From an uncultured Candidatus Saccharibacteria bacterium (GTDB lineage: Bacteria; Patescibacteriota; Saccharimonadia; Saccharimonadales; JAGQNJ01): a stretch of DNA of 64,000 nucleotides. Below, one piece after another: positions 4,546 through 59,610 of the stretch. Where the stretch lies: positions 450,208 to 514,207 of the forward strand of contig OZ246406.1 in assembly GCA_965231045.1 (NCBI GenBank), read 5' to 3'. The translations under genes and the position numbers were made by a program. The notes under the pieces are model-generated. The model was given only the letters and a program-made list of their open reading frames with translations, ran no database searches and was not told the origin of the DNA. Position 1 is the first letter of the stretch; the number at the start of each line of letters is the position of its first letter.

Positions 4546-4734
4546 TAAAATAACCCTTCGTTTTAGAGGCTTTCGCCCTTGATATTACTTCGATTGTGAT
4601 AATGAAATATCGAGTAATACGTCTAAAACAAACCCGGGTTCACTAATTACAATGTCCATATACATTAGCATTATTTTTAAGAGGTGTCAACAGTTTAGCC
4701 CCTACTTTCTTGTTTCTGCAAGAAAGCTAGCAAA

Positions 4735-4872
4735 GAACCGACAGGCGACTGGCTCGTATGATGCAACCACCTGTCAAAGCACACAACAGCCTCAGTAACT
4801 CGCTCCGCTCAGACATCCCTCGGCTTTATAGTTGTGCCTTTGCCGTGTTTGCTCAGCCTCCCCAGAGCCTGG
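4735..4872 (+). repeat. G+C-rich intergenic repeat, copy A (left flank of the R-M cassette)
   Basis: Collinear anchor blocks shared with copy B in inverted orientation: CAGGCGACT 4742-4750, ACTCGCTC 4798-4805, CAGAGCCTGG 4863-4872. It also shares blocks with the copies at 35453-35517, 32329-32420 and 26350-26518. Aligned by eye. Confidence 0.55.
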
Positions 4873-4906
4873 GAATATTACCTTACCTCTGATAGTATAA
4901 ATATCA

Positions 4907-7384: not shown

Positions 7385-7746
7385 AAGAAGTCTGACGCTC
7401 TTTCTATGGCAATCTTATCAATTGTATTATCGTCATAATTCTGCGTGTGTGAAACTATAGTTAGCAAAACGATCTTGTCCCCACTTACTGCAAACCACAT
7501 GCGAGGCCATTGGCTAGGCCTTAAGCCAGAGCCTGGTACAGCCATTTCTACTTTCCAGAGTGACCAGATCGCATTTTGATGAATCCGATGAATTTTTCCT
7601 GGAGCAATTACTTCATCAGGACTTGTTGGATCAAATTGTTTTTCAAGTAGTCTCTCAACTGCGCTCAAACCAGCAGTCGTTCCGGGGTATTTCTTTACGA
7701 GTTGCTTGAGCTCCCCAGAGAACTGATCATGTCGCAGAAAATTCAT
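7381..7746 (-). CDS. putative RelE/ParE-superfamily-like toxin, partner of the Panacea antitoxin
   Basis: Start chosen at the internal Met (MNFLRHDQF...), which overlaps the upstream gene stop by 20 nt. The C-terminal pattern LWKVEM...RMWFAVSGDKIVLLTIVSH resembles the RelE/ParE core. Family assignment is tentative. Confidence 0.5.
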   Translation of the reverse strand: MNFLRHDQFSGELKQLVKKYPGTTAGLSAVERLLEKQFDPTSPDEVIAPGKIHRIHQNAIWSLWKVEMAVPGSGLRPSQWPRMWFAVSGDKIVLLTIVSHTQNYDDNTIDKIAIERASDFF

Positions 7747-8233
7747 TAAAATCAGTCCCTCTATAAAAAGCCAGGTCATATGGTATTTCTTCACTAAGCT
7801 TTGTACCAATGTAGGGTGCCTCAGCATGTGTCAAGTCTTCTAGTTGCTTCCCGTTCAAACCTCCATAGAGCTTTGAAACTCGTTGAAGAATAGCTATGTC
7901 GTCTTCATCAAACACTGACATATCAGGTTCAGCCGTGCAAGTATACGTCTCTGTTGGTTTATAACCAGGGACACCTTCTATGGCATCTATTCGCAATTTG
8001 CCTGCCTTTGCCATTTTTTGAACAACATTCGGCATATTCTCTGGGAAAGGACCCATGGGCAAGGCTTTATAGACGTCCCCTGTTAAGGTCTTCATCGATT
8101 CTTTGTATTCGTAGTGGTCAAAGTCAAGATAATAGAGAAGCTTAGCGAGTTTTTTCTTACCATGAAGAACTCCGCCCTGTTGTTTACAGAGGTATAGAAT
8201 CGCGTTCTCGTACTTATTCAATGCTACGGCCAT
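7727..8233 (-). CDS. Panacea/DUF4065 (SocA/GepA-like) antitoxin-domain protein
   Basis: 168 aa. KKLAKLLYYLDFDHYEYKESMKTLTGDVYKALPMGPFP is typical of DUF4065 (PanA) proteins. Confidence 0.7.
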   Translation of the reverse strand: MAVALNKYENAILYLCKQQGGVLHGKKKLAKLLYYLDFDHYEYKESMKTLTGDVYKALPMGPFPENMPNVVQKMAKAGKLRIDAIEGVPGYKPTETYTCTAEPDMSVFDEDDIAILQRVSKLYGGLNGKQLEDLTHAEAPYIGTKLSEEIPYDLAFYRGTDFNEFSAT

Positions 8234-8282
8234 AAAATTATTATAACAACAAACGCAATGTTTATCGACTGCTTATGCTTAA

Positions 8283-10871
8283 CTACTGACTCCAAACTTC
8301 GGAGATTTTGTCTTTTATTTTTTGCTCAAAAATGGTTATTAATTGACGATTTTGGTCGACTAATATATTTCTGAGCTCCATATAGTCTTTAGCAAGAATC
8401 CTTTGTTCGTCTATAGATGGCAACGGTATTTTTATTCTTTTCAATGCACCACCGTTAAACTGCGGTTGGGCTCCTCCTTGAACAAGTTGTCTTGCTTGCA
8501 TCCAATAATCTTGGCACTGTGCATATGCCCAGTAAAATTCTGGTAATATTTTGGATACATCAAAATTTAATCTAATTAAGAACGATGCGAATACCGCTGG
8601 CTCGTTGTCTGTATAGATAGCAGTTTTACCATAAGTCGCCCCAGTTCGTGCAACGAGCACATCATTTTGATGTAATAAGTATTTTTCAGCCTCTGCGGTT
8701 AGGTTAATGTACTTCGCACCATCTTTTTTGACTGAACCCATGTCGTCAATATCTGTAATACGCACAAGCCTCGCCGACCCCTTATCTTTAGCGCTAGCTG
8801 TAAAGCCGTATTCGATACTTGCTACTTCATTAAGCTCAAACTTAGGCCAAGATGGTTTAACCACAATGTTCATCCCTTTAACTTGAGACATCTCTTTGGC
8901 TAAATCGATGATTTTTTGGTAGCTGTCGAGCTCGGCAACAATTTCTTTCTGCAGCTCAATCGGTGGTAGTGGTATTTCAAGATTTTTTATTGAGGTTGAA
9001 TTTATGCTGGCCTGGTTAACGGCTCTTTGTGCAAATCTCTTTGCATCATCTGTAAACAAATCCGACTTAAATACGTATAAAGCGTACTCCGGGATTATTT
9101 TTGATGTATCAGGCCGTAGCCTAAGTAGGTTCGAACCATGTATAACTTTCTCTTTACTTTCAAAGAGTGCAGTCTTAGCTAAATGATCAATGCTGTTTAT
9201 ATGGCTGAAAAGAATATCGCCTTTTTGTAGATAATCATTCTCATTCACGTCATCAGTAGACCATTTAACTGCATCTAGATTTACAATACCTTTTGCGATT
9301 GTTTGTATTCTAGACACTTTGTGACCTATAGGTTCGTCAGTTTGTTTAACGTTTTTGCCATTTTTAATTTCTATAAAAATGTCGCTGAGTTTAGATCTTG
9401 GCCATTTTTGATTTTGACTTGTTTCTGATACCAAGTACCGCGAAGCTGTTAGGTTGTAATCGCCACTCTCAGCAATTTTGTCTCGGCTCACCGCAACTAT
9501 CTCGATTTGATCTACTTCTGCTGGTGAACCAATTATATCCGGACCCCCAACGGTACTTAGTCCAATGGTAAATAAACCAGATTTTTTGAGTTCGTCTTTG
9601 ATAGTTTGTATATCAGTTTTTGGTTCTTTTCTGTATCTTTGTAGTATCTCAGCAGTCAGCGGCAAGTCGTTATGTGCTATTGGACGACGCTGTGCACCAA
9701 GGTCAAAACCGTCGTGCTCAATTTTTGCAAAAATAATGTCTTTGGATTGTTTTGCTCTGCTGTTATCAAAGATTAAGATACTGGTCTTAACACCTGCATA
9801 CGGGTTAAAGACGCCGGCAGGGAGCGAAATAACCGCAAGTAGGCCATCTTCAACTAAGTTTTTGCGTAATTGCTTGTATGCTTTGCCGCTTTGAAAAATA
9901 ATGCCTTCGGGCACAATAATGCCAGCCCGGCCGTTTTGCTTGAGGTGGCTCATGATGTAGTCAACAAACAAAACTTCTGCACGAGAAGATTCAACACCAA
10001 ACTTATTGTGTGGGCGAATCCCACCCTTTGGTGACATAAAGGGCGGATTGGCCAAAATAATATCAAAGGTATCACCCCAACGCTCTTCACTTGTTAAGCT
10101 GTCATACTCGTAAATCTGCGGGTCATTATTTCCATGCAGGTACATATTGACTCGAGCAAGTTTAACCATGTCGCTACTTATGTCGTAACCTTCTAGGTTG
10201 CTCATGAGTTTTTGCTTTTCTTGATGAGTCAGTGACTTTTCGTTATTTTTTTTACCATTTTCATCAACACCGTCATGCTTTTCAACAATATGCTTATAGG
10301 CACTGATAAGGAAGCCCGCCGTGCCGCAAGCTGGATCCAAAATAGTGTCGTCCTTATCTGGATCCAGCACCTTTACAATGAAGTCAATAATGTGACGAGG
10401 TGTACGGAACTGCCCCGCATCGCCCTGTGAACCCATAATGCTGAGCAAGTACTCGAAAGCATTGCCAAGTTCTTCGCTGTGATTGTAGTCAAAAAACTCA
10501 ATTTCTTTTAGGAACAAGTTGAGCGTTTCTGGGTCTCGGTACGGCAAAAAAGCTTGACGGAATATATCACGAAACAATTGCGGTAACTGTGCGGCCGTAC
10601 TAAACTTTTCCAACGCTTCTGTATACATATTCAAGCGCTCTTGCGAGCCACTGCGTGGGTCCATGAGTTTGCGCCATGCATACTTTTCTAGATCACCAGT
10701 AAAGAAAGAGGCTTTTCCGCCAGCATCTTTGGCCTTGATATCCATATCATCCATGAACTTATATATAAGTGCGTTGGTGATTTGATCTATCTGCTGCTTT
10801 GGATCTGGGACCTTACCAACTAGAACCTGCCTAGCACTATCAATATGTCTTTTTGTATCAGCTGTAAGCAT
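8283..10871 (-). CDS. Type I R-M fused methyltransferase-specificity protein (HsdM-HsdS fusion, 862 aa)
   Basis: N-terminal HsdM_N-like region. AdoMet motif DPACGTAGFL and catalytic NPPF (ILANPPFMSP). The C-terminal ~400 aa holds two TRD/conserved-helix units (…IPLPPIELQKEIV… and …IPLPSIDEQRILA…) typical of HsdS. Confidence 0.85.
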   Translation of the reverse strand: MLTADTKRHIDSARQVLVGKVPDPKQQIDQITNALIYKFMDDMDIKAKDAGGKASFFTGDLEKYAWRKLMDPRSGSQERLNMYTEALEKFSTAAQLPQLFRDIFRQAFLPYRDPETLNLFLKEIEFFDYNHSEELGNAFEYLLSIMGSQGDAGQFRTPRHIIDFIVKVLDPDKDDTILDPACGTAGFLISAYKHIVEKHDGVDENGKKNNEKSLTHQEKQKLMSNLEGYDISSDMVKLARVNMYLHGNNDPQIYEYDSLTSEERWGDTFDIILANPPFMSPKGGIRPHNKFGVESSRAEVLFVDYIMSHLKQNGRAGIIVPEGIIFQSGKAYKQLRKNLVEDGLLAVISLPAGVFNPYAGVKTSILIFDNSRAKQSKDIIFAKIEHDGFDLGAQRRPIAHNDLPLTAEILQRYRKEPKTDIQTIKDELKKSGLFTIGLSTVGGPDIIGSPAEVDQIEIVAVSRDKIAESGDYNLTASRYLVSETSQNQKWPRSKLSDIFIEIKNGKNVKQTDEPIGHKVSRIQTIAKGIVNLDAVKWSTDDVNENDYLQKGDILFSHINSIDHLAKTALFESKEKVIHGSNLLRLRPDTSKIIPEYALYVFKSDLFTDDAKRFAQRAVNQASINSTSIKNLEIPLPPIELQKEIVAELDSYQKIIDLAKEMSQVKGMNIVVKPSWPKFELNEVASIEYGFTASAKDKGSARLVRITDIDDMGSVKKDGAKYINLTAEAEKYLLHQNDVLVARTGATYGKTAIYTDNEPAVFASFLIRLNFDVSKILPEFYWAYAQCQDYWMQARQLVQGGAQPQFNGGALKRIKIPLPSIDEQRILAKDYMELRNILVDQNRQLITIFEQKIKDKISEVWSQ

Positions 10872-10945
10872 TAACCCCTCTCTGTTTCTGGTTTTATTTT
10901 ACACCTGGTAACAGATCAGGGGTGTTGTGATTTTTATTCAGTTAA

Positions 10946-11080
10946 CCAGGCTCTGCAGGCTCCTGATGATGTGAGTGTCAAAGCGACCTTTTGAGCGAGT
11001 GCGTGGAGCTTGCGGCAACGCCGAGCATGGTCGCGCTTGGCAGCGAACTCATAAAGAGCCGTAAGTCGCCTGCGGCGTTT
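10946..11080 (-). repeat. G+C-rich intergenic repeat, copy B (right flank of the R-M cassette, inverted relative to copy A)
   Basis: CCAGGCTCTG 10946-10955, GAGCGAGT 10993-11000 and AGTCGCCTG 11064-11072 are reverse complements of the copy-A anchor blocks, in the same order and with similar spacing. Confidence 0.55.
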
Positions 11081-11122
11081 TTGATACTTTTGCCGCTGTT
11101 GGTAAAAGTATGAAGCAAAAGG

Positions 11123-11989
11123 TTATTTGCAATAATCACTGGTCTTGCCACTGGCTTGGTCAGCAGCAGGGAGTGACTTAACAATCGCGGCATCTTTACT
11201 TGGAAGCATATCGAACCAACAAACTGCAAATCCAGCCTGGCTAAGTTCGTTTTGGTGTTTGCTCACAAATGATGCATTTTTTGAAGCTTCGTTTGGTTGT
11301 CTGAGATCATATACTCCAAAGTCAAACGCTGTGTTTTTTGGCGATGAATTTTTAAAACCGACTGCCGTAGCCACAACATCTCCTGCTTTTACTGAAATTG
11401 GCTTATCAAATGGAGTTGTTCTAGAATCGTCTTGTTTTGCAGCAGGTAATTTATCTGCCTGTTCCTGGAATGTTGGAGCTAATGTAAGCAAGTGATCGAA
11501 TCTATATGAAATGCCGCAAGCATTTGTAAAGCGCAGCATGTACTGCACCTCACCCTGCTCAATATATCTGCTACCTTCAACCAATTGCGCATCCATAACA
11601 GCGCTGACTTTCACATCGCTATTGTTGAGGCCATCGAATCTAAGACCGCCATGAGGTTTGTAGTTACCGCCACGTGTTTGGCCTGGGTATAGAACTGCAG
11701 TAGCCTTACTAACATCAGCTGGTGAATTATTAAAGACTAGTGGGTTCGGGCAAGTTGGTGGTGTGTCACTTGGTTGCCACTTTGAGCCATCAAACTGCCA
11801 ATCCACGTTTGTGGACGCCGATGAAGCAGATTGTGATGAACTTTGTGAAGTTTGATTACTACTCGTCGGTTTTTTACTAAACACTCGCCAGCCAACAAAG
11901 CCAACGACCGCCAATATAACAACTATTAACAATATTAAAAGAACGTGAGCTATTCCATTTTGATCTTTACGCATATGCTTATTATACAC
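11123..11989 (-). CDS. membrane-anchored extracytoplasmic protein, function unknown
   Basis: 288 aa. N-terminal TM (VLLILLIVVILAVVGFVGW) followed by a Ser/Gln-rich linker. No catalytic motif recognised. Confidence 0.55.
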   Translation of the reverse strand: MYNKHMRKDQNGIAHVLLILLIVVILAVVGFVGWRVFSKKPTSSNQTSQSSSQSASSASTNVDWQFDGSKWQPSDTPPTCPNPLVFNNSPADVSKATAVLYPGQTRGGNYKPHGGLRFDGLNNSDVKVSAVMDAQLVEGSRYIEQGEVQYMLRFTNACGISYRFDHLLTLAPTFQEQADKLPAAKQDDSRTTPFDKPISVKAGDVVATAVGFKNSSPKNTAFDFGVYDLRQPNEASKNASFVSKHQNELSQAGFAVCWFDMLPSKDAAIVKSLPAADQASGKTSDYCK

Positions 11990-12065
11990 ATTTCGTTATC
12001 GTTTACAGGTTGTACAGACTTCTTCATCCGATAAGCCATAGCGCCCCTGTGATAAAAGAAGTTAT

Positions 12066-12347
12066 CTACTGGGATTGTTTCCAGGGCTGGAGTTGCATCT
12101 CGATAACTAGACGATCATATACTGCCTGAGTATCCAGCTCGCACCCAGCCGCCTCTTGATCATCCAAGAACTTATCCATGCCCTCGGCTAGTTGATCTTC
12201 AACGGTCATTATTTGCAGCAGATCATTTGCGTCAAGGGCCTCAATAGCAACTTCAGTGTCCTGCATCATGAGTTGAGCTAACGCCGCGAAGCGCGCGTCA
12301 CATGCTTCGCGTTTCGGGCCTTCACACTCTATGCATCTCTCAACCAT
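12066..12347 (-). CDS. hypothetical acidic protein (93 aa)
   Basis: ORF co-oriented with and 19 nt downstream of 12367-13089. Confidence 0.45.
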   Translation of the reverse strand: MVERCIECEGPKREACDARFAALAQLMMQDTEVAIEALDANDLLQIMTVEDQLAEGMDKFLDDQEAAGCELDTQAVYDRLVIEMQLQPWKQSQ

Positions 12348-12366
12348 TAACTATATAGTACCCCTT

Positions 12367-13089
12367 TTAAGCCAAAATCTGTAAGTTAGGAACTTCTAAG
12401 CGGGCTGTTCTTACATATGTTCGACCATCTGGAGCTGCCAGCCGACCAACCTCGTAGACAATTCTATCGAGAGGTTTATCTGGATCAACCAACCGAAATG
12501 GTTCTGGAATACGAGCCATGGCATCAACTGCCCTGTTAACCTGATCTTGATGGGTCTCAATAACTTCTTCTATAACGCTTTCTTCTATCGGTTTGTAGTG
12601 CCGGGGAGCTTCCAACTCACCAGCTGCTATTTGCGCTTGTTGGCGCTGCATTTTGCGCATTTTTCGAGTCGTCAGAACCGCCTGGAAAATGTCAGTTAAA
12701 ATCTCATGCCCCTCAATGGTGTATTCCATCATGGTATGATCTGGTATTTCAAAATCCTTACTGACTCGGTGCAACCAGTTATGAAAGGGTATTGGCAGTA
12801 TGATTATATTTAGGGGCAGCTCTCTGAAACGCTTCGGAATATCGTCTTTCTTGCTGTTTTTTAAGAACTTACTTTTGGAGTGATAAAGGTGGTGGTCATT
12901 TGAGCTATCTGGCCCTATTGGGCTCACATATTCAGGGTGCAGCGTAGCCCGCACTGCTCGTAGATAAGGTACTACTTGGATGCGACCATATTCATCGGTG
13001 GGTACAGTTACAAAATCGAAGCCGTCTCGCAGGCGCATGGATTCGGGCGGCAGGCCATCTCGTTTCGACGAGATATTCCGCCCTAACAT
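12367..13089 (-). CDS. hypothetical protein (240 aa)
   Basis: Long ORF with no recognised domain. The His-rich stretch DHHLYHS...FHNWLHR is only weakly HNH-like. Confidence 0.5.
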   Translation of the reverse strand: MLGRNISSKRDGLPPESMRLRDGFDFVTVPTDEYGRIQVVPYLRAVRATLHPEYVSPIGPDSSNDHHLYHSKSKFLKNSKKDDIPKRFRELPLNIIILPIPFHNWLHRVSKDFEIPDHTMMEYTIEGHEILTDIFQAVLTTRKMRKMQRQQAQIAAGELEAPRHYKPIEESVIEEVIETHQDQVNRAVDAMARIPEPFRLVDPDKPLDRIVYEVGRLAAPDGRTYVRTARLEVPNLQILA

Positions 13090-19765: not shown

Positions 19766-19790
19766 CAAAAAAGCACCTCGTGTGAGATGC
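19766..19790 (-). terminator. intrinsic terminator after the displaced tmRNA 3'-end copy
   Basis: Minus strand reads GCATCTC-ACAC-GAGGTGC followed by TTTTTT. Confidence 0.6.
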
Positions 19791-19796
19791 GATTTT

Positions 19797-19815
19797 TGGT
19801 GGAGCTGCCGAGTAC
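19797..19815 (-). repeat. 19-nt exact duplicate of the tmRNA 3' end (T-stem 3' strand + acceptor + ACCA)
   Basis: TGGTGGAGCTGCCGAGTAC at 19797-19815 is identical to 19969-19987. Similarity continues into the GATTTT flank. Confidence 0.9.
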
Positions 19816-19930
19816 GAACTATTTTGCGCCTAGGGACAAAATTGCTTCGCAATTGCCCATGGCGGCCAAGCAAGGATTCCTCAAACTGCCACTGGCAGTT
19901 CTCACCCTCACGGCCAGCACTCGAACGTCA

Positions 19931-19966
19931 AACAAAAAATCTCCATTCCATAAGGAATCGAGATTT
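19931..19966 (-). terminator. intrinsic terminator 2 nt after the tmRNA 3' end (inside the insert)
   Basis: Minus strand reads AAATCTC-GATTCCTTATGGAATG-GAGATTT followed by TTTGTTTG. Confidence 0.5.
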
Positions 19967-19968
19967 TG

Positions 19969-20381
19969 TGGTGGAGCTGCCGAGTACTGCCCTCGGGTCC
20001 GTCAGTTTATCTTTGTTAGTCTTCTACAGGTTTAGTCTATCTAAGTGTCTTAGGAGTATGTCTCAAGATAGACAGAAAAACATATTCCGCAGACTCTAAA
20101 GTCTTGGCACTAATAAGGAGTCAACTTATCAATGGGCATCCAGAAAATATGACATGCGTATTGAAATATCTGGCGTCATTCAAAGCACGGCTCCGGTAAT
20201 TAAACTGAAGCTGTTACGGTCTGAAGCTGTAGACCTGTAAATGCGTTAGCAAATACAGAAGCTACGCTCTTCAAACCGCGAGTAATAGCGTTTGCAATTA
20301 CTGGGTTTTGCCTATAACGCTGACAAGCGACCTGCAAGATCTAACTGATAAAGTCCAACGTCGAGCTTAAAATTCAGCCCC
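19969..20381 (-). ncRNA. ssrA: tmRNA (SsrA), 413 nt
   Basis: 5' GGGGCUGAAUUUUAAGCUCGACG and 3' CCGAG-GGCAGUA-CUCGG-CAGCUCC-A-CCA. The acceptor pairs GGGGCUG/CAGCUCC with the G3:U Ala identity pair. Candidate resume context UAAUU-GCA-AAC-GCU resembles E. coli UAGUC-GCA-AAC-GAC. Confidence 0.88.
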
Positions 20382-32238: not shown

Positions 32239-32324
32239 ACTTTTCTATTCTTCTTATGCTTCAGTGTACCACAGTTCTCAGTTACTTTGGACCGCCAAAG
32301 TAACCAAAACTCTTGGGCTAACGT

Positions 32325-32425
32325 TTTTTCTTTATGAAGCCTCTGCTCAAGCCTGACAACAGCCTCGAGAACTCACGTTGTTCAAACAACTCTCGACTAA
32401 TGGTTGTCAGTTTGAAGAGCTTACA
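32325..32425 (+). repeat. G+C-rich intergenic repeat, copy E (inside the 322-nt pgk-tpiA spacer)
   Basis: TATGA 32333-32337, ACAACAGCCTC 32356-32366 (identical to 4783-4793), AACTC, and TAATGGTTGTCAGTTTG (compare TATAGTTGTGCCTTTG in copy A) are collinear with copy A. Confidence 0.5.
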
Positions 32426-32560
32426 AAGGAAAAAGCCGATGCCAAAACTTGCAAATGACCATTCTTTACAAAATTGCATGGAACGAGTTCTTAGTTTTAA
32501 CAGGGTCCAGCGTAGTGCTGGCGAAGCCAAAGCGCACTGTTAAAACTATAGTAGGAGTGG

Positions 32561-35296: not shown

Positions 35297-35370
35297 ATTC
35301 CCTACTAGTGTACTTGCTTATGGTTACCAGATACAAGACTTTATACAAATAAAAAGTTTACCAAAAAAAT

Positions 35371-35401
35371 TAAAAAGCCCAGCCGATGCTGCGCTCTTTT
35401 T
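35371..35401 (-). terminator. intrinsic terminator after the displaced tRNA-Glu 3'-end copy
   Basis: Minus strand reads AGCGCAGC-ATCG-GCTGGGCT (one mismatch) followed by TTTTTAATTTTTTT. Confidence 0.5.
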
Positions 35402-35419
35402 GGTGACCTCAAGGGGAAT
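35401..35419 (-). repeat. 19-nt exact duplicate of the tRNA-Glu 3' end
   Basis: TGGTGACCTCAAGGGGAAT at 35401-35419 is identical to 35531-35549. Confidence 0.9.
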
Positions 35420-35530
35420 GTTGCTTCGCAACCGTTCGTTCCACTCACGAACGAACCGCCTGACGGGCTTCGAGCTCGCCTTTGGCGAGCAACCACGCAA
35501 AAGCCCGAGTACACAACTCGGGCATTCACG
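35420..35530 (+). repeat. 111-nt insert between tRNA-Glu and its 3'-end duplicate; partial member of the G+C-rich repeat family
   Basis: Collinear with copy A: GAACCG 35453/4735, GAC.GGCT(T)CG, GCAACCAC 35489-35496/4763-4770, CAAA(A)GC, and ACACAAC 35511-35517/4781-4787. Hairpins are GTTGC-TTC-GCAAC, CGTTCGT-TCCACTC-ACGAACG and GCTCGCC-TTT-GGCGAGC. Confidence 0.55.
35497..35523 (-). terminator. intrinsic terminator 8 nt after the tRNA-Glu 3' end (inside the insert)
   Basis: Minus strand reads GCCCGAG-TTGTGTA-CTCGGGC followed by TTTTG. Confidence 0.6.
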
Positions 35531-35605
35531 TGGTGACCTCAAGGGGAATCGAACCCCTATTGCCAGGATGAAAACCTGGTGTCCTAACCGTTAGACGATG
35601 AGGCC
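35531..35605 (-). tRNA. tRNA-Glu (anticodon UUC), CCA encoded
   Basis: GGCCTCATCGTCTAACGGTTAGGACACCAGGTTTTCATCCTGGCAATAGGGGTTCGATTCCCCTTGAGGTCACCA folds as a cloverleaf. Anticodon stem CCAGG/CCTGG, loop UUUUCAU. Confidence 0.9.
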
Positions 35606-38736: not shown

Positions 38737-40944
38737 TTATTTAGGCGGGGTCTGTTCTTCCTTAGGTTTAGCAGGAGCCTTAAAATGATCTGGTGAAAGA
38801 GCTGATTTAGCGAATGAGAAACCAAACGTACTGCCCTTGCCTTCCTCACTATGGAAAATAAGTGCTCCGCCTTGCGCCACAATAACTTTCTTGGCCATAA
38901 ATAACCCTAGACCCGTGCCATCTGGCCGAGCTTTTTTGGCATTGCCAGCTCGATAAAACTTACCAAATAAATGGTGTTGTTCTTCTTTAGGCACGCCAAT
39001 CCCATCATCAACAACTGTGAATTCTATGCTATCGCCTTTATCTTCAAGATTAACCTGAATGTGTCCGCCGGCTGGTGTGTAATAGATAGCGTTGTCGGCA
39101 AAGTTCATAATTACCTGCCGGATCTTGGTATCATCAAGCATAAGTGTCGGGAACTCTTTTGGCTTATGATAAGTAAGTTCCAGATCACGTCCTTTGGCCG
39201 TCTCTGTAAGTTGAGAGATTTCCCCTTCAACAACCTCAGCCAGGTTAGTTGGTTTAGGCTCAATGATAAATTTACCAGTACGAAGTCTAGAGACATTCAA
39301 TAGATCAGCAATCAAATACACCATACGTTGGGAACTTATAAAGGCTTGGTCGAGCAGCTTCTTTTGAGCGGCACTAATCTTACCGGCGTCACCCTCCATG
39401 ACCATGCTGACATAGCCTTTAACAGAGGTAAGCGGAGTACGTAACTGGTGTGAGGCCATGCTAATGAAGTCATCTTTGGTTTGATCCATCTGCTTCAATT
39501 TTTCATTTGTTCGCCTTAGCTGTCTTGTAGCTTCATTAACTTTCTCCTGCAAAGTTTCGGCAAAATTCTGAATTTCTTCAAACCTTAGCGAGTTTTGGAT
39601 AGCAATAACCAACTCATCTGATATGATCTCAAGCATTTTTGTATCTTGTGATGAATAAGGATTCCCACTCTTTTTTGGCCCCAGAATAATATAACCTAGT
39701 CCTTCACTTACCTTTTTCGGGGTATCCGTGAGTCTTGCTATAACAGATATATTGTTTCTTCTTAAGATTTCTCCTAAACCTCTATTTTCTTCACCAAGTT
39801 CGTCAGCAACTATTATCTTTGTGTGCATCTTAGGGGTTACTTCACGAGTATAGTTGATATCCTCTTCCGGGAAGTTCTTCGATGCATCACCAACAATACG
39901 TCTAGGTGTACTTCCCATCTCCTTTATCCCGAAAACGCAAAATTCTGATTTTAGAGTCTGCCCAATAACAGTTGAACTTTTTTTAAGTAGTTCTTCTAGC
40001 TCAATTGTTCCGACAAGCACTTTATTCAATTGATCTATCAGAACCTGGGGCTCATATGCATCCCGATAAAAAAGCCTGTTCGTAAATTTATCAAAGAATT
40101 TCTTTGCCGGAGGAAAGGAGAACGCCAGAACCACAGCTAACACAACATAAAATACCTGCTCGTTAAATGATAAATGAGTCTTGAATGCAAAAATATTGGC
40201 AATATTAAATGCAATTAGCGAATAAACTGCACCTAGGAAAATTATTGACAACGCATAACCTAGAGACCTAGCAACAATTAAGCGTATATCAAATAATTTA
40301 TGCCTAATAATCGCATATGCTGTTGCCCCAACAAAAAACACCGTGCCTGCCGGACCAAGTTTGGCAGTAACCCAACTTGTAACAAAGATTGGAAGAATAA
40401 CATTGAAAACTAATGCCCAGATAAAACTAGACATAAAACCAAATGCAACAAACTGAGCTTGCATTTTTTCAATCTGATCAACTTTATGTCGGTTTTTAAT
40501 GTAAACAACTAGGGCATATGTAAAAAGTAGTAGAACAATTACTGTGTAACCGTTATACATCAAACCTGGAACTACATCTGTACCGTCAGTACGAACTTTT
40601 ACTCCATAAACAACGAGGTTTGTTACACTGAAAATAATACCTACTGCGGTTACGAATGTAACATATAGTAAGCCTTTCTTTGTAAAACCAAGCTTTAAGG
40701 GGAAAACTCTTGAAAAAAGAGCTAATAATCCTGAGACTACTACTGGGAAGAAAAAAGCTGCTTTTGCGAAGAAAAGCCTTAGGTCAGGAGAAGCATTATC
40801 TGTAAAATAACTTGATATACTCCATAAACAAATTGAAAGGCTCATCGCCAAGAATATGCGATTAACAGCTGATTTTGTATTTCTTGCAAAAACTAGAAAA
40901 CCTACAAAAGCATTAATTAAGACAATGAAAATCAAGATTGCCAT
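38737..40944 (-). CDS. sensor histidine kinase with polytopic N-terminal membrane domain
   Basis: About 8 TM segments. HisKA H-box MASHQLRTPLT. HATPase N/G boxes (NFADNAIYYTP, DDGIGVP, GTGLGL). Confidence 0.85.
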   Translation of the reverse strand: MAILIFIVLINAFVGFLVFARNTKSAVNRIFLAMSLSICLWSISSYFTDNASPDLRLFFAKAAFFFPVVVSGLLALFSRVFPLKLGFTKKGLLYVTFVTAVGIIFSVTNLVVYGVKVRTDGTDVVPGLMYNGYTVIVLLLFTYALVVYIKNRHKVDQIEKMQAQFVAFGFMSSFIWALVFNVILPIFVTSWVTAKLGPAGTVFFVGATAYAIIRHKLFDIRLIVARSLGYALSIIFLGAVYSLIAFNIANIFAFKTHLSFNEQVFYVVLAVVLAFSFPPAKKFFDKFTNRLFYRDAYEPQVLIDQLNKVLVGTIELEELLKKSSTVIGQTLKSEFCVFGIKEMGSTPRRIVGDASKNFPEEDINYTREVTPKMHTKIIVADELGEENRGLGEILRRNNISVIARLTDTPKKVSEGLGYIILGPKKSGNPYSSQDTKMLEIISDELVIAIQNSLRFEEIQNFAETLQEKVNEATRQLRRTNEKLKQMDQTKDDFISMASHQLRTPLTSVKGYVSMVMEGDAGKISAAQKKLLDQAFISSQRMVYLIADLLNVSRLRTGKFIIEPKPTNLAEVVEGEISQLTETAKGRDLELTYHKPKEFPTLMLDDTKIRQVIMNFADNAIYYTPAGGHIQVNLEDKGDSIEFTVVDDGIGVPKEEQHHLFGKFYRAGNAKKARPDGTGLGLFMAKKVIVAQGGALIFHSEEGKGSTFGFSFAKSALSPDHFKAPAKPKEEQTPPK

Positions 40945-45632: not shown

Positions 45633-46016
45633 ATGCAGTCTAAACAAAAAATAGTAATCGTAGAGGATGAGCCGTCGATACAAGAAATGTATCGGATGAA
45701 GTTAAACTTATCCGGGTTTGACGTACAAACCGCAAATAATGGCGAAGATGGGCTAAAAGTAATCGATGCTTTTGAACCTCACCTGATTTTGCTCGATCTT
45801 AAGATGCCAGTTATGAGTGGTGACATCATGCTTGAAAAACTGCGTGAGACCAAAAAAGGCGCAGAGATTCGTGTAATAGTTCTCACAAACATTAGTCGTG
45901 ATGAAGCGCCACACAATCTGCGATTCCTAAATGTTGATCGGTATATTGTAAAAGCACATTACACACCGACACAGGTGATAAATGTCGTTGAAGAAGTTCT
46001 TGGTATAAAGAAGTAA
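45633..46016 (+). CDS. stand-alone response-regulator receiver protein (CheY-like), copy 1
   Basis: 127 aa. EDE acidic pair, phospho-Asp context ILLDLKMP, VLTN, and VKA Lys. Confidence 0.85.
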   Translation: MQSKQKIVIVEDEPSIQEMYRMKLNLSGFDVQTANNGEDGLKVIDAFEPHLILLDLKMPVMSGDIMLEKLRETKKGAEIRVIVLTNISRDEAPHNLRFLNVDRYIVKAHYTPTQVINVVEEVLGIKK

Positions 46017-46052
46017 GCTTGCAGTTGTAAGTAATAAGCGTACCATGAGGAT

Positions 46053-46421
46053 ATGGGTGCTAGGATCGCAATACTTGAAGATGATCAGCCCATACGCGAG
46101 ATGTATGAGCTCAAACTGAAGAGTGCCGGATACACTGTTAAAGCAGCCGGTGACGGCGTTCAAGGCCTAACGCTTTTGGAAAAATTCAGGCCTGACTTAA
46201 TACTTCTCGACCTTATGATGCCAGAAATGAACGGTGATGAAGTCGCCGAAAAGGTTCGCTCAACTAAGTGGGGAGCAAAAACAAAAATTATTGTTCTGAC
46301 TAATATTAGTTTGGATGAAGCGCCTGAAAAGTTACAAAAACTTGGAATACTAGATTATGTTGTCAAAGCCAATCACACACCTTCCCAGGTTATCGAAATA
46401 GTTCAAAACGCATTACATTAA
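46053..46421 (+). CDS. stand-alone response-regulator receiver protein, copy 2
   Basis: 122 aa. EDD, ILLDLMMPEMNG, VLTN, VKA. Confidence 0.85.
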   Translation: MGARIAILEDDQPIREMYELKLKSAGYTVKAAGDGVQGLTLLEKFRPDLILLDLMMPEMNGDEVAEKVRSTKWGAKTKIIVLTNISLDEAPEKLQKLGILDYVVKANHTPSQVIEIVQNALH

Positions 46422-46432
46422 AAAATGTAAGA

Positions 46433-47416
46433 TTACCTAATTCTTCTTTTAACCCCATAGTAGCGCCTACTCTTCACATAAGATTCTTCCGGTCGGACAG
46501 TATACTTTTTAAATGCATTTTTTGGCCTTAAAGAAAGTAGGTGAGCTCGATATTTTGGGTCACCTATATGTATAACCATATTTACGAATTTCGCGTTTTC
46601 TTTAGTAAATAATTCTGCCATCTTGTAGCATGCAAAGCTATGTGATCCAGGCACATCGAATGTAAATCCAGAGTACTTTATTACCTTATAGTTGCTATTT
46701 AGAGGTGATTCATATAATGAAAAGCTATTGATTTCATCATCTATATAAAGCGAAACAACTTCTGTGCCAAGTTTGGTTGCATTGTTAATTGAATACAGGA
46801 ATGCATTCTCTGCGTGACTTGGAAGACAATTAACTTCAGCTTTTTCTTTCCAGTCAAAATAACAGTTAATTATTAACTCTCGGTTTTCTGGCTTACTGAG
46901 ATCTATCTTTTTTAGGTCAACCCTTTTCCCTTTTGTGGCTCGTAAAAAGCTTCCGACTTTGATTCGTAGAAATATTGGCATTGACTTAATTTCTGCCGTT
47001 TCTTCGACCAACAATAAGGATTCTACGTAGTCAGGCTCATCCTCACAGCCAAACATCTCGGGGTACCTAATGTGTCCTAGTACAAAATCTGGTACGTGAA
47101 CTAGCTTACTTTCCTGGTCTTGAGCTTTTTGGTAATCAAAAATTTCGCAAATTGATTCGTCAATTTTATTAGTGCCCACCAGTGAAAGTCCTGAGTTTTC
47201 GTCATCTCCGGGCAGCCAATATGATATGACCAAGTTCCCGTGAATTTGTGAAACCTTACAATTACCAAGTGAGCTCCACCAACTCATTAAACTCGAAAAA
47301 GAGATTTCCGAGATTGGTGGATAATCTCGAATTAAGGCATTGTAAGCATCTCTATCAGACAACTTTAATTCATAAAACTCTGGAAATTCTGGGAGAACGA
47401 GTGGCTTTATCTTCAT
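46433..47416 (-). CDS. soluble DUF2156-like protein, paralog 2
   Basis: 327 aa. DYPPISEISFSSLMSWWSSLG...LSLVGTNKIDESI, collinear with paralog 1. Confidence 0.55.
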   Translation of the reverse strand: MKIKPLVLPEFPEFYELKLSDRDAYNALIRDYPPISEISFSSLMSWWSSLGNCKVSQIHGNLVISYWLPGDDENSGLSLVGTNKIDESICEIFDYQKAQDQESKLVHVPDFVLGHIRYPEMFGCEDEPDYVESLLLVEETAEIKSMPIFLRIKVGSFLRATKGKRVDLKKIDLSKPENRELIINCYFDWKEKAEVNCLPSHAENAFLYSINNATKLGTEVVSLYIDDEINSFSLYESPLNSNYKVIKYSGFTFDVPGSHSFACYKMAELFTKENAKFVNMVIHIGDPKYRAHLLSLRPKNAFKKYTVRPEESYVKSRRYYGVKRRIR

Positions 47417-47521
47417 ACAACACCTTTCGTTAGCCTTAAAATAGCACTAATAACTACAGGGGTCAACAGATATCAGTAAAATGTTATTGAGTTAGTATCA
47501 ACAATGCCGTAGGATTAATAT

Positions 47522-47893
47522 ATGTCGGCCAAGATCGCAATCATAGAAGACGATCAAGCTATTTCTCAGATGTACCGCATCAAATTTGAGGCGGAAGGTT
47601 TTGTTGTCGAGACTGCCGAAAACGGCAAACTTGGATTAGAACTTGCCGAAAATATGAAGCCAGATATTATTCTGCTGGACCTTATGATGCCAGAAATGAA
47701 CGGCGATGAAATGCTGTCCAAACTCCGCAAAACCCCGTTTGGCAAAAATACAAAAGTAGTCATCCTTACCAACATGGGCGAGCAAGAAGTCCCAGAAGAA
47801 GTTAAGAAACTTGGTGTTGTGGCAATTATTCTTAAGGCTGATATGACACCGCGCCAGGTAGCTGAACTTGTTAAGAAACAACTCAACAAATAG
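47522..47893 (+). CDS. stand-alone response-regulator receiver protein, copy 3
   Basis: 123 aa. EDD, ILLDLMMPEMNG, ILTN, LKA. Confidence 0.85.
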   Translation: MSAKIAIIEDDQAISQMYRIKFEAEGFVVETAENGKLGLELAENMKPDIILLDLMMPEMNGDEMLSKLRKTPFGKNTKVVILTNMGEQEVPEEVKKLGVVAIILKADMTPRQVAELVKKQLNK

Positions 47894-52606: not shown

Positions 52607-52642
52607 CTCGTCAGAGCAAGCCCAAAGCCTCACTCTGACGAG
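52607..52642 (+). other. perfect 10-bp hairpin abutting the tRNA-Lys 5' end
   Basis: CTCGTCAGAG (52607-52616) / CTCTGACGAG (52633-52642). The last G is tRNA nt 1. The upstream GCGAGTTTACT 52598-52608 matches rc of copy A 4794-4803. Confidence 0.5.
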
Positions 52643-52718
52643 GGCCACTAGCTCAGCTGGTTAGAGCATCGGCCTCTTAAGCCGAGTGTCCTGGGTTCGA
52701 GTCCCAGGTGGCCCTCCA
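52642..52718 (+). tRNA. tRNA-Lys (anticodon CUU), CCA encoded
   Basis: GGGCCACTAGCTCAGCTGGTTAGAGCATCGGCCTCTTAAGCCGAGTGTCCTGGGTTCGAGTCCCAGGTGGCCCTCCA. Anticodon loop CUCUUAA. Confidence 0.9.
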
Positions 52719-59386: not shown

Positions 59387-59403
59387 GGTACACCGGGAGG
59401 GAT
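59387..59403 (-). repeat. 17-nt exact duplicate of the tRNA-Arg 3' end
   Basis: GGTACACCGGGAGGGAT at 59387-59403 is identical to 59535-59551. Confidence 0.88.
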
Positions 59404-59494
59404 AATCGCACATTAATCTGTGCGCCGAGAATCTCGGGCAACAGACTAATGACCGAACCCTGGATCGAATCCCTGCTCGAAATGTCGAGCTAAA

Positions 59495-59519
59495 ATATAA
59501 AACCACCCATTCTGGGTGG
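59495..59519 (-). terminator. intrinsic terminator 14 nt after the tRNA-Arg 3' end (inside the insert)
   Basis: Minus strand reads CCACCCA-GAA-TGGGTGG followed by TTTTATATTTT. Confidence 0.6.
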
Positions 59520-59533
59520 CAAAATATTTTACC

Positions 59534-59610
59534 TGGTACACCGGGAGGGATTCGAACCCCCGACCCTCTGTTCCGAAGACAGATGCTCTAATCCGCTGAG
59601 CTACCGGTGC
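59534..59610 (-). tRNA. tRNA-Arg (anticodon UCG), CCA encoded
   Basis: GCACCGGTAGCTCAGCGGATTAGAGCATCTGTCTTCGGAACAGAGGGTCGGGGGTTCGAATCCCTCCCGGTGTACCA. Anticodon loop CUUCGGA. Confidence 0.9.

Follow-up and report, generated by a model that had tools for sequence, protein, structure and literature searches.

A candidate miniature insertion cassette in the T loop of a Saccharibacteria tRNA-Glu gene

We hold with moderate confidence that positions 35401-35530 of the 64-kb stretch of Saccharibacteria DNA analysed here (the window) are a non-coding miniature cassette inserted into the T loop of tRNA-Glu, and that this cassette is one of a large class in Saccharibacteria. The class comprises mini-elements that occupy tRNA and tmRNA genes and in every case spare one intact copy of the gene. 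It is apparently undescribed: literature searches returned no account of such elements, the nearest being group I introns in the tRNAs of Patescibacteria. All coordinates are positions within the window, and parts on the minus strand are read in the sense of the tRNA (Table 1).

The unit is delimited by an exact repeat. The 19-mer TGGTGACCTCAAGGGGAAT has two exact copies in the window, at 35401-35419 and 35531-35549, and no others; about 0.01 matches are expected by chance, and two copies were found in none of 100 shuffles. The second copy is the 3' end, from A58 to CCA, of a tRNA-Glu(UUC) gene on the minus strand (35531-35605), called by ARAGORN and matched by the Rfam tRNA model at 63.5 bits, and 111 nt (35420-35530) lie between the two. 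A sequence-only reading of this DNA had described a tRNA-Glu 3' end duplicated around an insertion and had listed a set of hairpins in the insert; the duplication was borne out, and the hairpins are all present. The 130-nt unit has folding z scores of -3.4 and -4.7 on the two strands, equalled by none of 200 shuffles. It leaves no room for any ORF and thus has no coding capacity, and no promoter-like site was found in it.

In the tRNA sense, the insert begins with T1 (GCCCGAG-TTGTGTA-CTCGGGC followed by TTTTGCGTGG), in which the GCCCGAG/CTCGGGC hairpin at 35503-35523 precedes a T run. This predicted terminator is probably the present end of the tRNA-Glu transcript, and nearly all related elements have a terminator at the same position. 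The inverted copy passes from TGGTT through the hairpin GCTCGCC-AAA-GGCGAGC to CTCGAAGCC, the reverse complement of the T arm being ATCGAACCCC; the hairpin (35474-35490) occupies the position of the acceptor complement. The direct T-arm 5' half that follows, GGCGGTTCG, compares with GGGGTTCG in tRNA-Glu itself. The segment containing it opens the partial tRNA copy, which the inverted copy caps into a hairpin. The 32-nt module consists of two hairpins, TTCGT/ACGAA (35435-35451) and GTTGC-GAA-GCAAC (35420-35432), the latter touching the distal repeat. That distal copy occupies the ancestral position of the tRNA 3' end and runs on into the old downstream DNA; beyond it lie T2 and then a conserved block of the pyruvate kinase promoter, CTTGTA..CATAAGCAAGTACACTAG. 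T1 bears no relation to T2 (9/35 identities).

Table 1. Parts of the cassettes at tRNA-Glu, tRNA-Arg and tmRNA, and the unoccupied tRNA-Lys gene
Feature	Positions	Strand	Basis or remark
Intact tRNA-Glu(UUC)	35531-35605	-	Last 19 nt are the proximal repeat copy; ARAGORN, Rfam, sequence
Glu insert: 7-nt spacer, then predicted terminator T1	35493-35530	-	Terminator scan, sequence
Glu insert: decayed inverted copy of tRNA 3' half	35466-35492	-	Sequence; layout recurs in 50+ elements
Glu insert: 5-nt loop and direct T-arm 5' half GGCGGTTCG	35452-35465	-	Sequence, fold
Glu insert: 32-nt module splitting the pseudo T loop, G57/A58	35420-35451	-	Sequence, fold
Distal exact tRNA-Glu 3' end (A58 to CCA)	35401-35419	-	Repeat search; empty-site alignment
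Old terminator-like hairpin T2, GCGCAGC-ATCG-GCTGGGC and T run	35363-35400	-	Sequence, empty-site alignment
tRNA-Arg(UCG) element and gene	59387-59610	-	Second case in the window
tRNA-Arg(UCG) gene	59534-59610	-	
Arg element: terminator T1	59502-59520	-	
Arg element: hairpin	59475-59490	-	
Arg element: inverted T arm	59462-59474	-	
Arg element: direct AGGGTTCG	59454-59461	-	
Arg element: 50-nt module, two hairpins	59404-59453	-	
Arg element: 17-nt exact repeat	59387-59403	-	Equals 59535-59551
tmRNA element and gene	19797-20381	-	Third case; Rfam tmRNA
tmRNA gene	19969-20381	-	Rfam
tmRNA element: terminator T1	19930-19963	-	
tmRNA element: truncated M module, GGGTGA and hairpin A only	19871-19917	-	Covariance model, 31.6 bits
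tmRNA element: hairpin ATTGC-GAA-GCAAT	19841-19853	-	
tmRNA element: 19-nt exact repeat	19797-19815	-	Equals 19969-19987
tmRNA element: terminator T2	19773-19790	-	
tRNA-Lys(CUU), unoccupied internal control	52642-52718	+	ARAGORN; plain terminator 3'

Orthologous empty sites show that the unit was inserted. The sequence-only reading had proposed a search for tRNA-Glu loci without the insert, and such loci were found: in L038, L014, L019 and L033, tRNA-Glu leads directly into this promoter block, and the 130-nt unit is missing. Such an element is present at 9 of 25 other Saccharibacteria tRNA-Glu loci; an exact 3' repeat starting inside the T loop is seen in L004, L009, L024, L029, L040, L043, L064 and L068. 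Six independent assemblies of the host species all contain an identical Glu insert, so that the unit is fixed within the species; no empty/filled polymorphism was seen among the six, and no free form was found. An identity breakpoint between L091 and L144, considered as evidence of transfer, proved to be a rearrangement of the flanks between close relatives.

Three of the four tRNA-like genes in the window (tRNA-Glu, tRNA-Arg and tmRNA) have an element, and the sense strands of all three correspond to the G-rich strand of the window. At the fourth, tRNA-Lys(CUU), no repeat was present within 600 nt. The kinship between the Glu and tmRNA inserts that had been suggested earlier holds, in their shared architecture and in a hairpin-forming 11-mer, TTGCTTCGCAA, absent elsewhere in the window (two copies in 64 kb, 0.03 expected); the tmRNA copy lies at 19842-19852 and not, as first given, at 19844-19854. 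Apart from this hairpin, pairwise Smith-Waterman alignments among the Glu, Arg and tmRNA inserts gave nothing significant. The element at tRNA-Arg extends the class beyond what had been claimed. GCGAAGC mini-hairpins were no more than modestly enriched (4 observed, about 0.8 expected).

A broader kinship had also been proposed, in which the Glu insert belongs to a dispersed family of G+C-rich intergenic repeats of this genome. We consider this extremely improbable. The five collinear blocks said to be shared with 4735-4787 show no clear excess over chance, and the Smith-Waterman alignments are no better than those of shuffled sequence. A single marginal alignment favours membership, that with 4690-4885 (score 22; dinucleotide shuffles 16.7 +/- 2.2, reached by 9 of 300 with no correction for the three regions compared), but it spans 23 gapped columns on the opposite strand. 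No remaining comparison exceeds the mean of the shuffles (10920-11110, score 18, reached by 130 of 300 shuffles; 32239-32560, score 16, reached by 255 of 300). None of the Glu, Arg and tmRNA inserts resembles the three regions beyond shuffles, and the covariance model of module M, described below, has no match in them. The regions are alike among themselves (score 32 between 4690-4885 and 32239-32560, against 19.1 +/- 2.3, in 0 of 300 shuffles) and unlike the Glu insert; they appear to be partly interrelated and to form a separate family.

The trait common to the class is an exact repeat of the tRNA or tmRNA 3' end about 100-215 nt downstream (for Glu, 19 of 19 nt from A58, after 111 nt). The parts follow one order in the tRNA sense, namely terminator, inverted T-arm remnant, direct T-arm 5' half, loop-splitting module and repeat, and the flanking exact repeats comprise 17-22 nt of the tRNA. 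Such a 3' repeat was found at 63 of 151 tRNAs in related loci, a set biased toward elements, while in 623 kb taken without bias all four matches to M adjoin a tRNA-Glu gene. Truncated, nested and tandem copies also occur, and no pseudo-copy free of a module was seen.

A rival reading is purely local replication error, with template switching or fold-back at the hairpins of the terminator and T arm generating an inverted plus direct triplication of the tRNA 3' half and with no foreign DNA or mobility involved. Each unit does hold an inverted and a direct local tRNA 3' half around a terminator hairpin, 4 of 58 elements have two identical terminators, and an inverted repeat of its own caps the truncated flank in every case, the D-loop one included. 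However, the modules are not of local origin, unrelated tRNAs and unrelated genomes have the same ones, and their junction positions are constant within each module family. At the Glu locus the two terminators are unrelated, and the 32-nt module has no local source. Local error as the whole explanation is improbable in our view, and template switching may be the route by which the cap and the duplication arise during insertion.

M is a module of about 95 nt with three hairpins. It was retrieved from metagenomes at no fewer than 120 loci using a sequence pattern taken from the tmRNA insert, so that the invariance of hairpin A and of the GGGT before it is partly built in. About 14 tRNA species harbour it, in each case within a loop of a partial copy that has an intact copy as its neighbour. 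The fold has 31 base pairs, 95.6% of them paired against 78% in shuffles; compensatory changes occur at 21 pairs, and 0 of 500 shuffles attained any of these measures. G-U pairs are far commoner than A-C (one G-U is kept in 50 of 54 sequences), which assigns the structure to the tRNA-sense strand. The end hairpins A and C are mutually unrelated. Models and core motifs sought by eye gave no match to hammerhead, HDV-like, twister-sister, hatchet, pistol or group I RNAs, and we put down to coincidence a likeness between type I-F CRISPR repeats and hairpin A (CUGCC/GGCAG).

Junctions of M are exact and involve no target-site duplication: T54 is the last base on the left, and the first base on the right is T55 (16 cases) or C56 (14 cases). 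M was also found in the D loop of a tRNA copy (L046), in the anticodon loop of tRNA-Pro, in reverse orientation at tRNA-Phe (whose bottom strand has CTGGGT), in non-tRNA hairpin loops (L089 and L185) and nested in another M without any duplication. The target of M is a short loop motif and not the T arm as such. There is also a mirror-image form, in which a 5' partial copy, M, a capped short flank and a promoter-like spacer precede the intact tRNA.

In the window, the M covariance model R1 matched the tmRNA insert alone, in its 5' part only. The Glu insert scored 6.4 bits (E = 2.8), below a match, and the locus is without M. Its junction, GGCGGTTCG / 32 nt / ATTCCCC, fits the site of another family, the N-type modules (GCGCAG-hairpin-CGAGCA), which are inserted after GTTCG (G57|A58); the same junction is seen in L068, L097, L109, L137 and the Arg element of the window. 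The conserved N-type core GCGCAG...CGAGCA is absent from 35420-35451, and the terminal hairpin GGTTGCGNAGCAAC is all that the Glu module has in common with L064, L064 having GGTTGCGTAGCAAC at the position of the Glu module. L068 repeats the Glu layout and is the best homologue of the Glu insert, at a weak nhmmer E of 0.62; neither the Glu nor the Arg insert had a significant homologue in 1.33 Mb of related loci (blastn and nhmmer). Since the Glu insert has no significant homologue and fails the M model, its membership in the class rests on architecture and the shared terminal hairpin, and we treat its module as a putative shortened relative of the N modules. Several unrelated module families, 22-100 nt long, occupy the same niche.

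Searches for an enzyme or a known family were largely negative. Pfam gave no Phage_integrase match, and no integrase, transposase or reverse transcriptase, among about 55 window proteins, and no TnpA (Y1 transposase), TnpB or RAYT was found in the 64-kb window. When the 518 ORFs within 5 kb of M were clustered, only large serine recombinases emerged (L148/L115 and L110), too few to carry weight; those of L148 and L115 abut tRNA-Gln. Rfam 15, applied with gathering thresholds and with E <= 10 to the window, the insert, L009 and seven non-tRNA M loci, returned only tRNA and tmRNA. M had no blastn match in phages and plasmids, and its pattern had 0 matches in the 2.9 million viral contigs of IMG/VR. 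By the criteria for MITEs, the module lacks terminal inverted repeats, and the flanking repeat is a tRNA segment and not a staggered-cut duplication.

These results bear on whether the Glu unit could be the scar of an integrase-borne island or prophage that entered the T loop and lost most of its interior, leaving attL, a little attP-arm DNA and attR. Integrative elements of the T-loop class reportedly leave a repeat from T loop to CCA together with a terminator supplied by the element. The repeat at hand has this span, a terminator that would be element-supplied follows the proximal copy, tmRNA is a classical integration target too, and recombinase genes adjoin tRNA-Gln as noted. On the other hand, three scars of 130-172 nt would have to lie within one 64-kb window and dozens of loci fall in the same size class (about 100-215 nt), and no kb-scale island bounded by such repeats was found in 1.33 Mb of related loci. 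The window has no integrase and only 111 nt between the repeats. The module splits the distal T loop, whereas the T arm would be expected intact in an attR core. The covarying modules are common to about 14 tRNA species, the mirror-image 5' form exists, and M is absent from the viral contigs. We regard a scar as quite improbable.

A further rival, a host-serving small RNA gene, we think unlikely. The module and its tRNA-derived arms would form a functional RNA made from a strongly transcribed tRNA locus; it might be, for instance, a mimic of the tRNA end, a guide-like scaffold followed by 17-22 nt that repeat the tRNA gene exactly, or an RNA that cleaves itself and so sets tRNA fragments free. 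M is deeply conserved and covarying with strand-specific G-U pairs, the exact repeat stays perfect while adjacent tRNA-like parts decay, a terminator follows the unit in many cases, a tRNA promoter precedes it in the 5' form, and the Glu unit is fixed in the host species across six samples. A gene serving the host is harder to reconcile with its patchy presence at the same tRNA among relatives, with unrelated module families filling one niche, and with truncated, nested and tandem copies. A strong terminator also separates the tRNA from the module, and the Glu unit lacks both a promoter-like site and M altogether.

In the insertion cassette that we favour, the unit would bring its own A58-to-CCA copy and terminator, so that one intact, properly terminated tRNA gene would result. 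The old 3' end would be pushed 130 nt downstream, behind a hairpin module in a truncated, hairpin-capped pseudo T arm. The structured module would be the conserved core of the cassette, placed after GGT (T54|T55) for M and after GTTCG (G57|A58) for the N-type. We infer mobility in trans, by an enzyme or other activity that would recognise or use the module and act at one set position within exposed tRNA-gene loops; the intermediate would probably be the tRNA-sense strand, folded as single-stranded DNA or as RNA. Because the duplicated tRNA segment provides homology, a unit could be lost by recombination between the repeats or pass between genomes at the same tRNA; because the tRNA-derived parts match the local tRNA, simple travel between different tRNAs is not expected. 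Tentatively, M (and the N-type by analogy) might be a novel minimal mobile nucleic acid, a folded RNA or single-stranded DNA of about 95 nt that itself directs where it inserts, after GGU/GGT in loops that are exposed in tRNA, tmRNA and other hairpin genes. Duplication of half of the target, capping by fold-back and the gain of a terminator or promoter would be coupled outcomes. The scaffold with its exact target copy would in that case serve as a ribozyme or guide an unlinked enzyme. Coupling insertion to half-target duplication would allow essential single-copy genes to be colonised without being killed.

Several known systems share features with the cassettes. T-loop islands and prophages with tyrosine integrases have the same tRNA 3' repeat from T loop to CCA, restore the gene, bring a terminator, displace the old 3' end and also use tmRNA. 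They measure kilobases, whereas the cassettes measure 100-215 nt and contain no integrase or any gene, split the distal T loop where islands keep an intact core site, have an inverted tRNA-half cap and a mirror form replacing the 5' part and promoter, and also use D-loop and anticodon-loop sites. CIMEs and other non-autonomous integrative elements are likewise bounded by att-like repeats, lack a recombinase of their own and are presumed to depend on trans-acting functions. CIMEs are kb-sized decay products of ICEs, in contrast to a whole unit of about 130 nt with a covarying hairpin core and no known parent element.

Palindrome-associated IS200/IS605 miniatures and REP/RAYT elements are similar in being strand-specific and hairpin-rich with terminal or subterminal hairpins, in inserting 3' of a fixed motif (GGT^T for M, GTTCG^ for N), in lacking target-site duplication (as M does), in nested simple insertions and in strand bias, the occupied genes' sense strand being the G-rich strand of the window. 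They are unlike the cassettes in the enzymes, TnpA, TnpB and RAYT being absent from the 64-kb window, in the obligatory partial target duplication, inverted cap and new terminator or promoter of the cassettes, and in the unrelated end hairpins A and C of M. Folded single-strand sites, integron attC and CTX-phage attP(+), allow small non-coding units and insertions that regenerate the target, and the inverted plus direct tRNA half of a cassette could fold into a mimic of the target duplex; the cassettes have no R/L box consensus or shown link to IntI or Xer, and their module lies at the crossover point.

Group I introns of Patescibacteria likewise place structured, RNA-type insertions in the loops of tRNAs, and in the same phylum. 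They are about 200 nt or more, self-splice and interrupt the sole copy of the gene at its anticodon loop, whereas the cassettes interrupt a truncated pseudo-copy beside an intact gene with modules of 22-100 nt that match no Rfam intron. MITEs and Rickettsia palindromic elements, the latter able to occupy RNA genes too, are small, non-coding, structured and multi-copy as well; the cassettes differ in having no terminal inverted repeats or short target-site duplication, in being locus-specific and in having target-derived arms.

The genomes of Saccharibacteria measure about 1 Mb; their tRNA genes are single-copy, and mobile elements that can be recognised are few. The units described here are present at one third or more of the tRNA genes sampled in the window and in related loci, a locus set biased toward elements. 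If our reading is true, they would be the smallest known target-restoring insertion elements and would show a route for colonising an essential single-copy gene. M would be a new, strongly covarying structured motif outside Rfam and a candidate ribozyme, guide scaffold or single-strand recombination site. The cassettes would explain why CPR assemblies show contig breaks and spurious fragments of tRNA, would shift the ends of tRNA transcripts, and would provide a marker with which to trace recombination among uncultured lineages.

The 3' end of tRNA-Glu, from A58 to CCA, is duplicated as the sequence-only reading had described: the 19-mer TGGTGACCTCAAGGGGAAT has exactly two copies, at 35531-35549 and 35401-35419, where approximately 0.01 matches are expected, and no shuffle contained two. 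The 111-nt insert between them (35420-35530) holds all of the hairpins listed in that reading, and the first of these, taken there for a terminator, scored as an intrinsic terminator. The 130-nt unit as a whole (35401-35530) folds far better than shuffled sequence on both strands (z = -3.4 and -4.7). The initial observation of a Glu repeat with a hairpin insert is confirmed. Six SRA runs gave one independent assembly each for this species, and since the insert is identical in all of them, an assembly artefact is ruled out and the insert is fixed in the species. Four of the six assemblies (L202, L203, L205 and L206) end 264-306 nt upstream of the pyruvate kinase gene, within the tRNA-Glu/cassette region or at its margin, which suggests that repeats or hairpins disturb its short-read assembly.

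The Glu unit is inserted DNA. At four related loci (L038, L014, L019 and L033), which provide the insert-free comparison that had been proposed, tRNA-Glu occupies the same position, upstream of pyruvate kinase, and the unit is missing. There a promoter block (CTTG..CATAAGCAAGTACACTAG) follows the tRNA after a terminator or a few bases; in the window this block comes after the distal copy and an old terminator-like hairpin. The empty sites therefore place the distal copy and its hairpin in the ancestral position and identify the proximal tRNA 3' end, together with the terminator that ends the intact tRNA, as inserted DNA. The unit restores the interrupted gene by bringing a distal tRNA part and a terminator. 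Counting one locus per species, an element is present at 9 of 25 other Saccharibacteria tRNA-Glu loci, the remainder being plain tRNA and terminator. The elements carry hairpin modules, of families termed M, N and O, that interrupt loops of partial tRNA copies: M at L004, L009, L029 and L046, an M-like module at L024, and N-type modules at L040, L043, L064 and L068. The last of these loci has a tRNA-Glu almost identical to that of the window and shares its 19-nt repeat; the 98-nt insert there follows the same layout, with compensated hairpin differences (GCTCGCC-AAA-GGCGAGC in the window vs GCTCTC-GAAG-AGAGC).

A repeat scan and direct reading revealed two more 3'-end repeats in the window, at tRNA-Arg and tmRNA. 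In all three inserts, read in the tRNA sense, six parts follow one another in the same order: a terminator hairpin and T run immediately 3' of CCA; the tRNA 3' half, inverted and partly decayed (in the Glu unit TGGTT, a private hairpin, then CTCGAAGCC); a short loop; the 5' strand of the T stem and the start of the T loop, as a direct copy (GGCGGTTCG in the Glu unit vs GGGGTTCG in tRNA-Glu itself, and AGGGTTCG in the Arg unit); a hairpin module (32 nt in Glu, 50 nt in Arg, longer in tmRNA); and the exact repeat, which begins within the T loop. Rather than standing alone as a 19-mer, the distal repeat thus forms the 3' part of a truncated tRNA copy; the T loop of this copy is split by the module, and its 5' end is capped by the inverted repeat. 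The T loop of the tmRNA is non-canonical (CCGAG-GGCAGTA-CTCGG), and the element side just 5' of its distal repeat (..AGTTC/GTACTCGG) resembles a canonical T loop. The three cassette-bearing RNA genes all lie on the minus strand, as do the majority of genes, and the sole free tRNA lies on the plus strand, whose GC skew is negative over the full 1-64000.

Positions of RNA genes and other annotated features in the window
Feature	Position	Strand	Remarks
ResIII/HsdR-like helicase-nuclease	4907-7384	plus	in restriction-modification cassette (4907-10871)
SocA/Panacea-domain antitoxin-like gene	7727-8233	minus	between helicase-nuclease and methylase genes
Fused N6-methylase with two specificity domains	8283-10871	minus	in restriction-modification cassette
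tmRNA	19969-20381	minus	Rfam, 62.2 bits, no ARAGORN call; last 19 nt repeated 153 nt downstream (19797-19815 = 19969-19987)
tRNA-Glu(UUC)	35531-35605	minus	ARAGORN and Rfam
7TM histidine kinase	38737-40944		adjoined by receiver-gene region 45633-47893
Stand-alone response-regulator receiver genes (three)	45633-46016, 46053-46421, 47522-47893		GC of region down to 0.35-0.40
tRNA-Lys	52642-52718	plus	no comparable repeat
tRNA-Arg(UCG)	59534-59610	minus	last 17 nt repeated 130 nt downstream (59387-59403 = 59535-59551)

The motif GGGTGAGAAnTGCCnGTGGCAnTT is common to the tmRNA insert and the Glu inserts of L009 and L029, and metagenomes scanned with it gave at least 120 loci. Approximately 7 of the matches listed are chance matches within coding sequence and the others are M, a module of approximately 95 nt with three hairpins. 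In an alignment of 54 copies, 31 base pairs were predicted; 95.6% of cells pair, vs 78% when shuffled and 25-42% with partners slid, and 21 pairs show compensatory double changes. None of 500 shuffles reached any of these measures; the invariance of hairpin A is partly an effect of the search pattern. G-U cells number approximately 100 vs about a dozen A-C cells, with one G-U retained in 50 of the 54 sequences, so that the M fold is that of the tRNA-sense strand, as RNA or single-stranded DNA. M had no match in Rfam, in 2.9 million viral contigs or in phage and plasmid collections, and a truncated copy within the tmRNA insert (31.6 bits) was the sole match of its covariance model in the window. 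Purely local triplication cannot give modules common to unrelated loci, and we regard such an origin as improbable.

Among the matches listed, 49 loci have M 58-90 nt (mostly 70-80) downstream of a tRNA whose own 3' end is repeated exactly at approximately 160-190 nt, over 9-23 nt (typically 17-23). Among these tRNAs are those for Leu, Glu, Tyr, Gln, Arg, His, Lys, Val, Ser, Ala and Gly. M is joined precisely, with the left flank running to T54 and the right flank starting from T55 (16 cases) or C56 (14 cases), and no target-site duplication was found at the junctions. Approximately 20 of the matches listed have a mirror-image form, in the order 5' partial tRNA copy through T54, M, a right flank of 7-13 nt folded back onto an inverted copy of itself, a promoter-like spacer and the intact tRNA; this form restores the gene by bringing the proximal tRNA part and the spacer. 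A decayed integrase island would fit the T-loop-to-CCA repeat, but not the uniform small size of the units, the split distal T loop, the covarying modules shared among loci or the mirror form, and no full-length relative was seen; we consider such an island very unlikely. The units encode nothing, no kb-scale parent element was seen in 1.33 Mb, and no recombinase linked to them was found among the approximately 55 ORFs of the window.

The G run preceding M belongs to the T stem and not to M (GGAGG-T-GAGAA in L113), and an exposed loop containing GGT^T seems to be what is actually required. M also occupies the D loop of a partial tRNA-Glu (L046), the anticodon loop of tRNA-Pro(GGG) and, reversed, tRNA-Phe, where CTGGGT is available only on the bottom strand, as well as a non-tRNA hairpin loop in L089 and L185. 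One M is nested in another at GAGGCGGG^GTCGC, there with no duplication or cap. In Saccharibacteria DNA sampled without bias (623 kb), M matched four times, each time beside the tRNA-Glu gene. The core of the unit is a structure-constrained module, and its insertion position is fixed.

Several M-bearing contigs showed further arrangements. In L089 (1180-1400) and L185 (around 430-620), M lies at AGAGGGGGT^GGGCACCGCT in a partial copy of a conserved hairpin with no Rfam family; the intact copy follows approximately 30 nt downstream, preceded by a TAAAAT-like box. L121 (minus, about 1500-1900) has two consecutive units of tRNA-Pro 5' part and M before the intact tRNA-Pro, and L114 (4050-4620) has several complete and truncated M copies, every one ending AGAGTC/CGAGTC. 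In L174, all four tRNAs of a 7-kb stretch carry elements, the 345-nt insert at tRNA-Val (5340-5690) holding two modules. L111, a contig without a tRNA gene, has two copies, 1.4 kb apart (11163-12695), of a block made of the last 9 nt of tRNA-Lys, a terminator, an inverted T arm, the T-stem and the first 35 nt of M. Between the blocks lie a GNAT-like gene and a small gene rich in Cys codons; the first block runs on into a full M followed by 21 nt of tRNA-Lys end, and a two-HTH protein (HTH_38/HTH_7) is encoded immediately upstream. Such an arrangement may represent a version that carries cargo or is borne on a plasmid. In L148 (300-1850) and L115 (46-1512), a 512-aa large serine recombinase gene runs into the antisense of tRNA-Gln(CUG), which has a second, slightly different T-loop-to-CCA segment 11 nt on and an upstream M unit; the arrangement resembles a conventional recombinase-borne element that uses the same hotspot. 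In L110, a frameshifted serine recombinase lies 450 nt from a non-tRNA M.

The niche is shared by at least two more types of module. N, with a GCGCAG-hairpin-CGAGCA core inserted after GTTCG57, was found at Glu, Asp, Phe and Arg (L040, L043, L064, L137, L166 and L097), and O, with the motif CCCTAGAACC, at Gly (L172) and Val (L192). The Glu and Arg units of the window have the N-type junction (G57/A58) without the N core, and the Glu module has only the terminal hairpin GGTTGCGNAGCAAC in common with L064. The 11-mer TTGCTTCGCAA, reported earlier as shared by the Glu and tmRNA inserts, indeed has its sole two copies in the 64 kb there. Because the M covariance model did not match the Glu insert (6.4 bits), and blastn and nhmmer found no significant homologue of the Glu or Arg insert in 1.33 Mb of related loci, the putative assignment of the Glu insert to this class is based on its architecture, the position of the junction and a single hairpin in common rather than on overall similarity. 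A host-serving RNA, which is compatible with mobility, is the strongest rival reading: conservation, covariation, a repeat kept perfect and fixation in the species would all agree with it. Nevertheless, the patchy distribution points to a selfish element, as do several unrelated modules in one niche, the truncated, nested and tandem copies and a terminator in front of the module, so that we judge a host-serving RNA unlikely, if less so than local triplication or an integrase island.

The proposed link between the tRNA-end inserts and the dispersed repeats at 4690-4885, 10920-11110 and 32239-32560 was not borne out. The three inserts align to these regions no better than dinucleotide shuffles do, which is the outcome that the sequence-only reading had named as refuting this link. 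Only the Glu insert vs 4690-4885 is marginal, with a score of 22 that 9 of 300 shuffles also reached, and its alignment is gapped, spans 23 columns and lies on the opposite strand. The M covariance model likewise had no match in them. Since the regions resemble one another (32 vs 19.1 +/- 2.3, 0/300; 26, 2/300), they probably form a small repeat family of their own, with no relation to the tRNA-end cassettes. The likeness of 4782-4835 and 32355-32407 has the form ACAACAGCCTC(G)AG(T)AACTC...TTGT (Smith-Waterman 32 vs 19.1 +/- 2.3), and one copy occupies the 320 nt separating the genes for triosephosphate isomerase and phosphoglycerate kinase. Judged by its sequence, the window comes from the chromosome of a member of the Saccharibacteria (TM7): its approximately 55 ORFs are ordinary housekeeping genes, and a homologue search with its pyruvate kinase returned homologues at 55-72% identity only in Saccharibacteria/Patescibacteria genomes.

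We propose that the module may serve as recognition or active structure for a non-autonomous element working through a single-stranded form, because the fold is strand-specific, three-base loops are many, insertion is 3' of a short motif without duplication, as with IS200/IS605-type elements, and the sense strand of the occupied genes is the G-rich strand with the free tRNA-Lys opposite (n = 4, a hint only). The tRNA-derived arms match the local tRNA in every case, so either they are made locally at insertion or the unit spreads at the same tRNA only. In the latter case units could pass between genomes through recombination in the repeated segment, and the structures would be exactly what Campbell-type or double-crossover exchange would yield. 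For local synthesis, fold-back or template switching during insertion is a candidate that we keep as a partial rival; the truncated flank is capped by its own inverted repeat in every case, and no module-free pseudo-copies were seen.

A full-text literature search found no description of such tRNA-end elements. The nearest paper concerns group I introns of Patescibacteria tRNAs, which sit in anticodon loops and which we judge to be different. A tentative suggestion, and the less probable outcome, is that the module is a mobile or catalytic nucleic acid of a new kind. We regard the units themselves as a new variant among tRNA-targeting, target-restoring integrative elements: miniature, non-coding and with a structured core.
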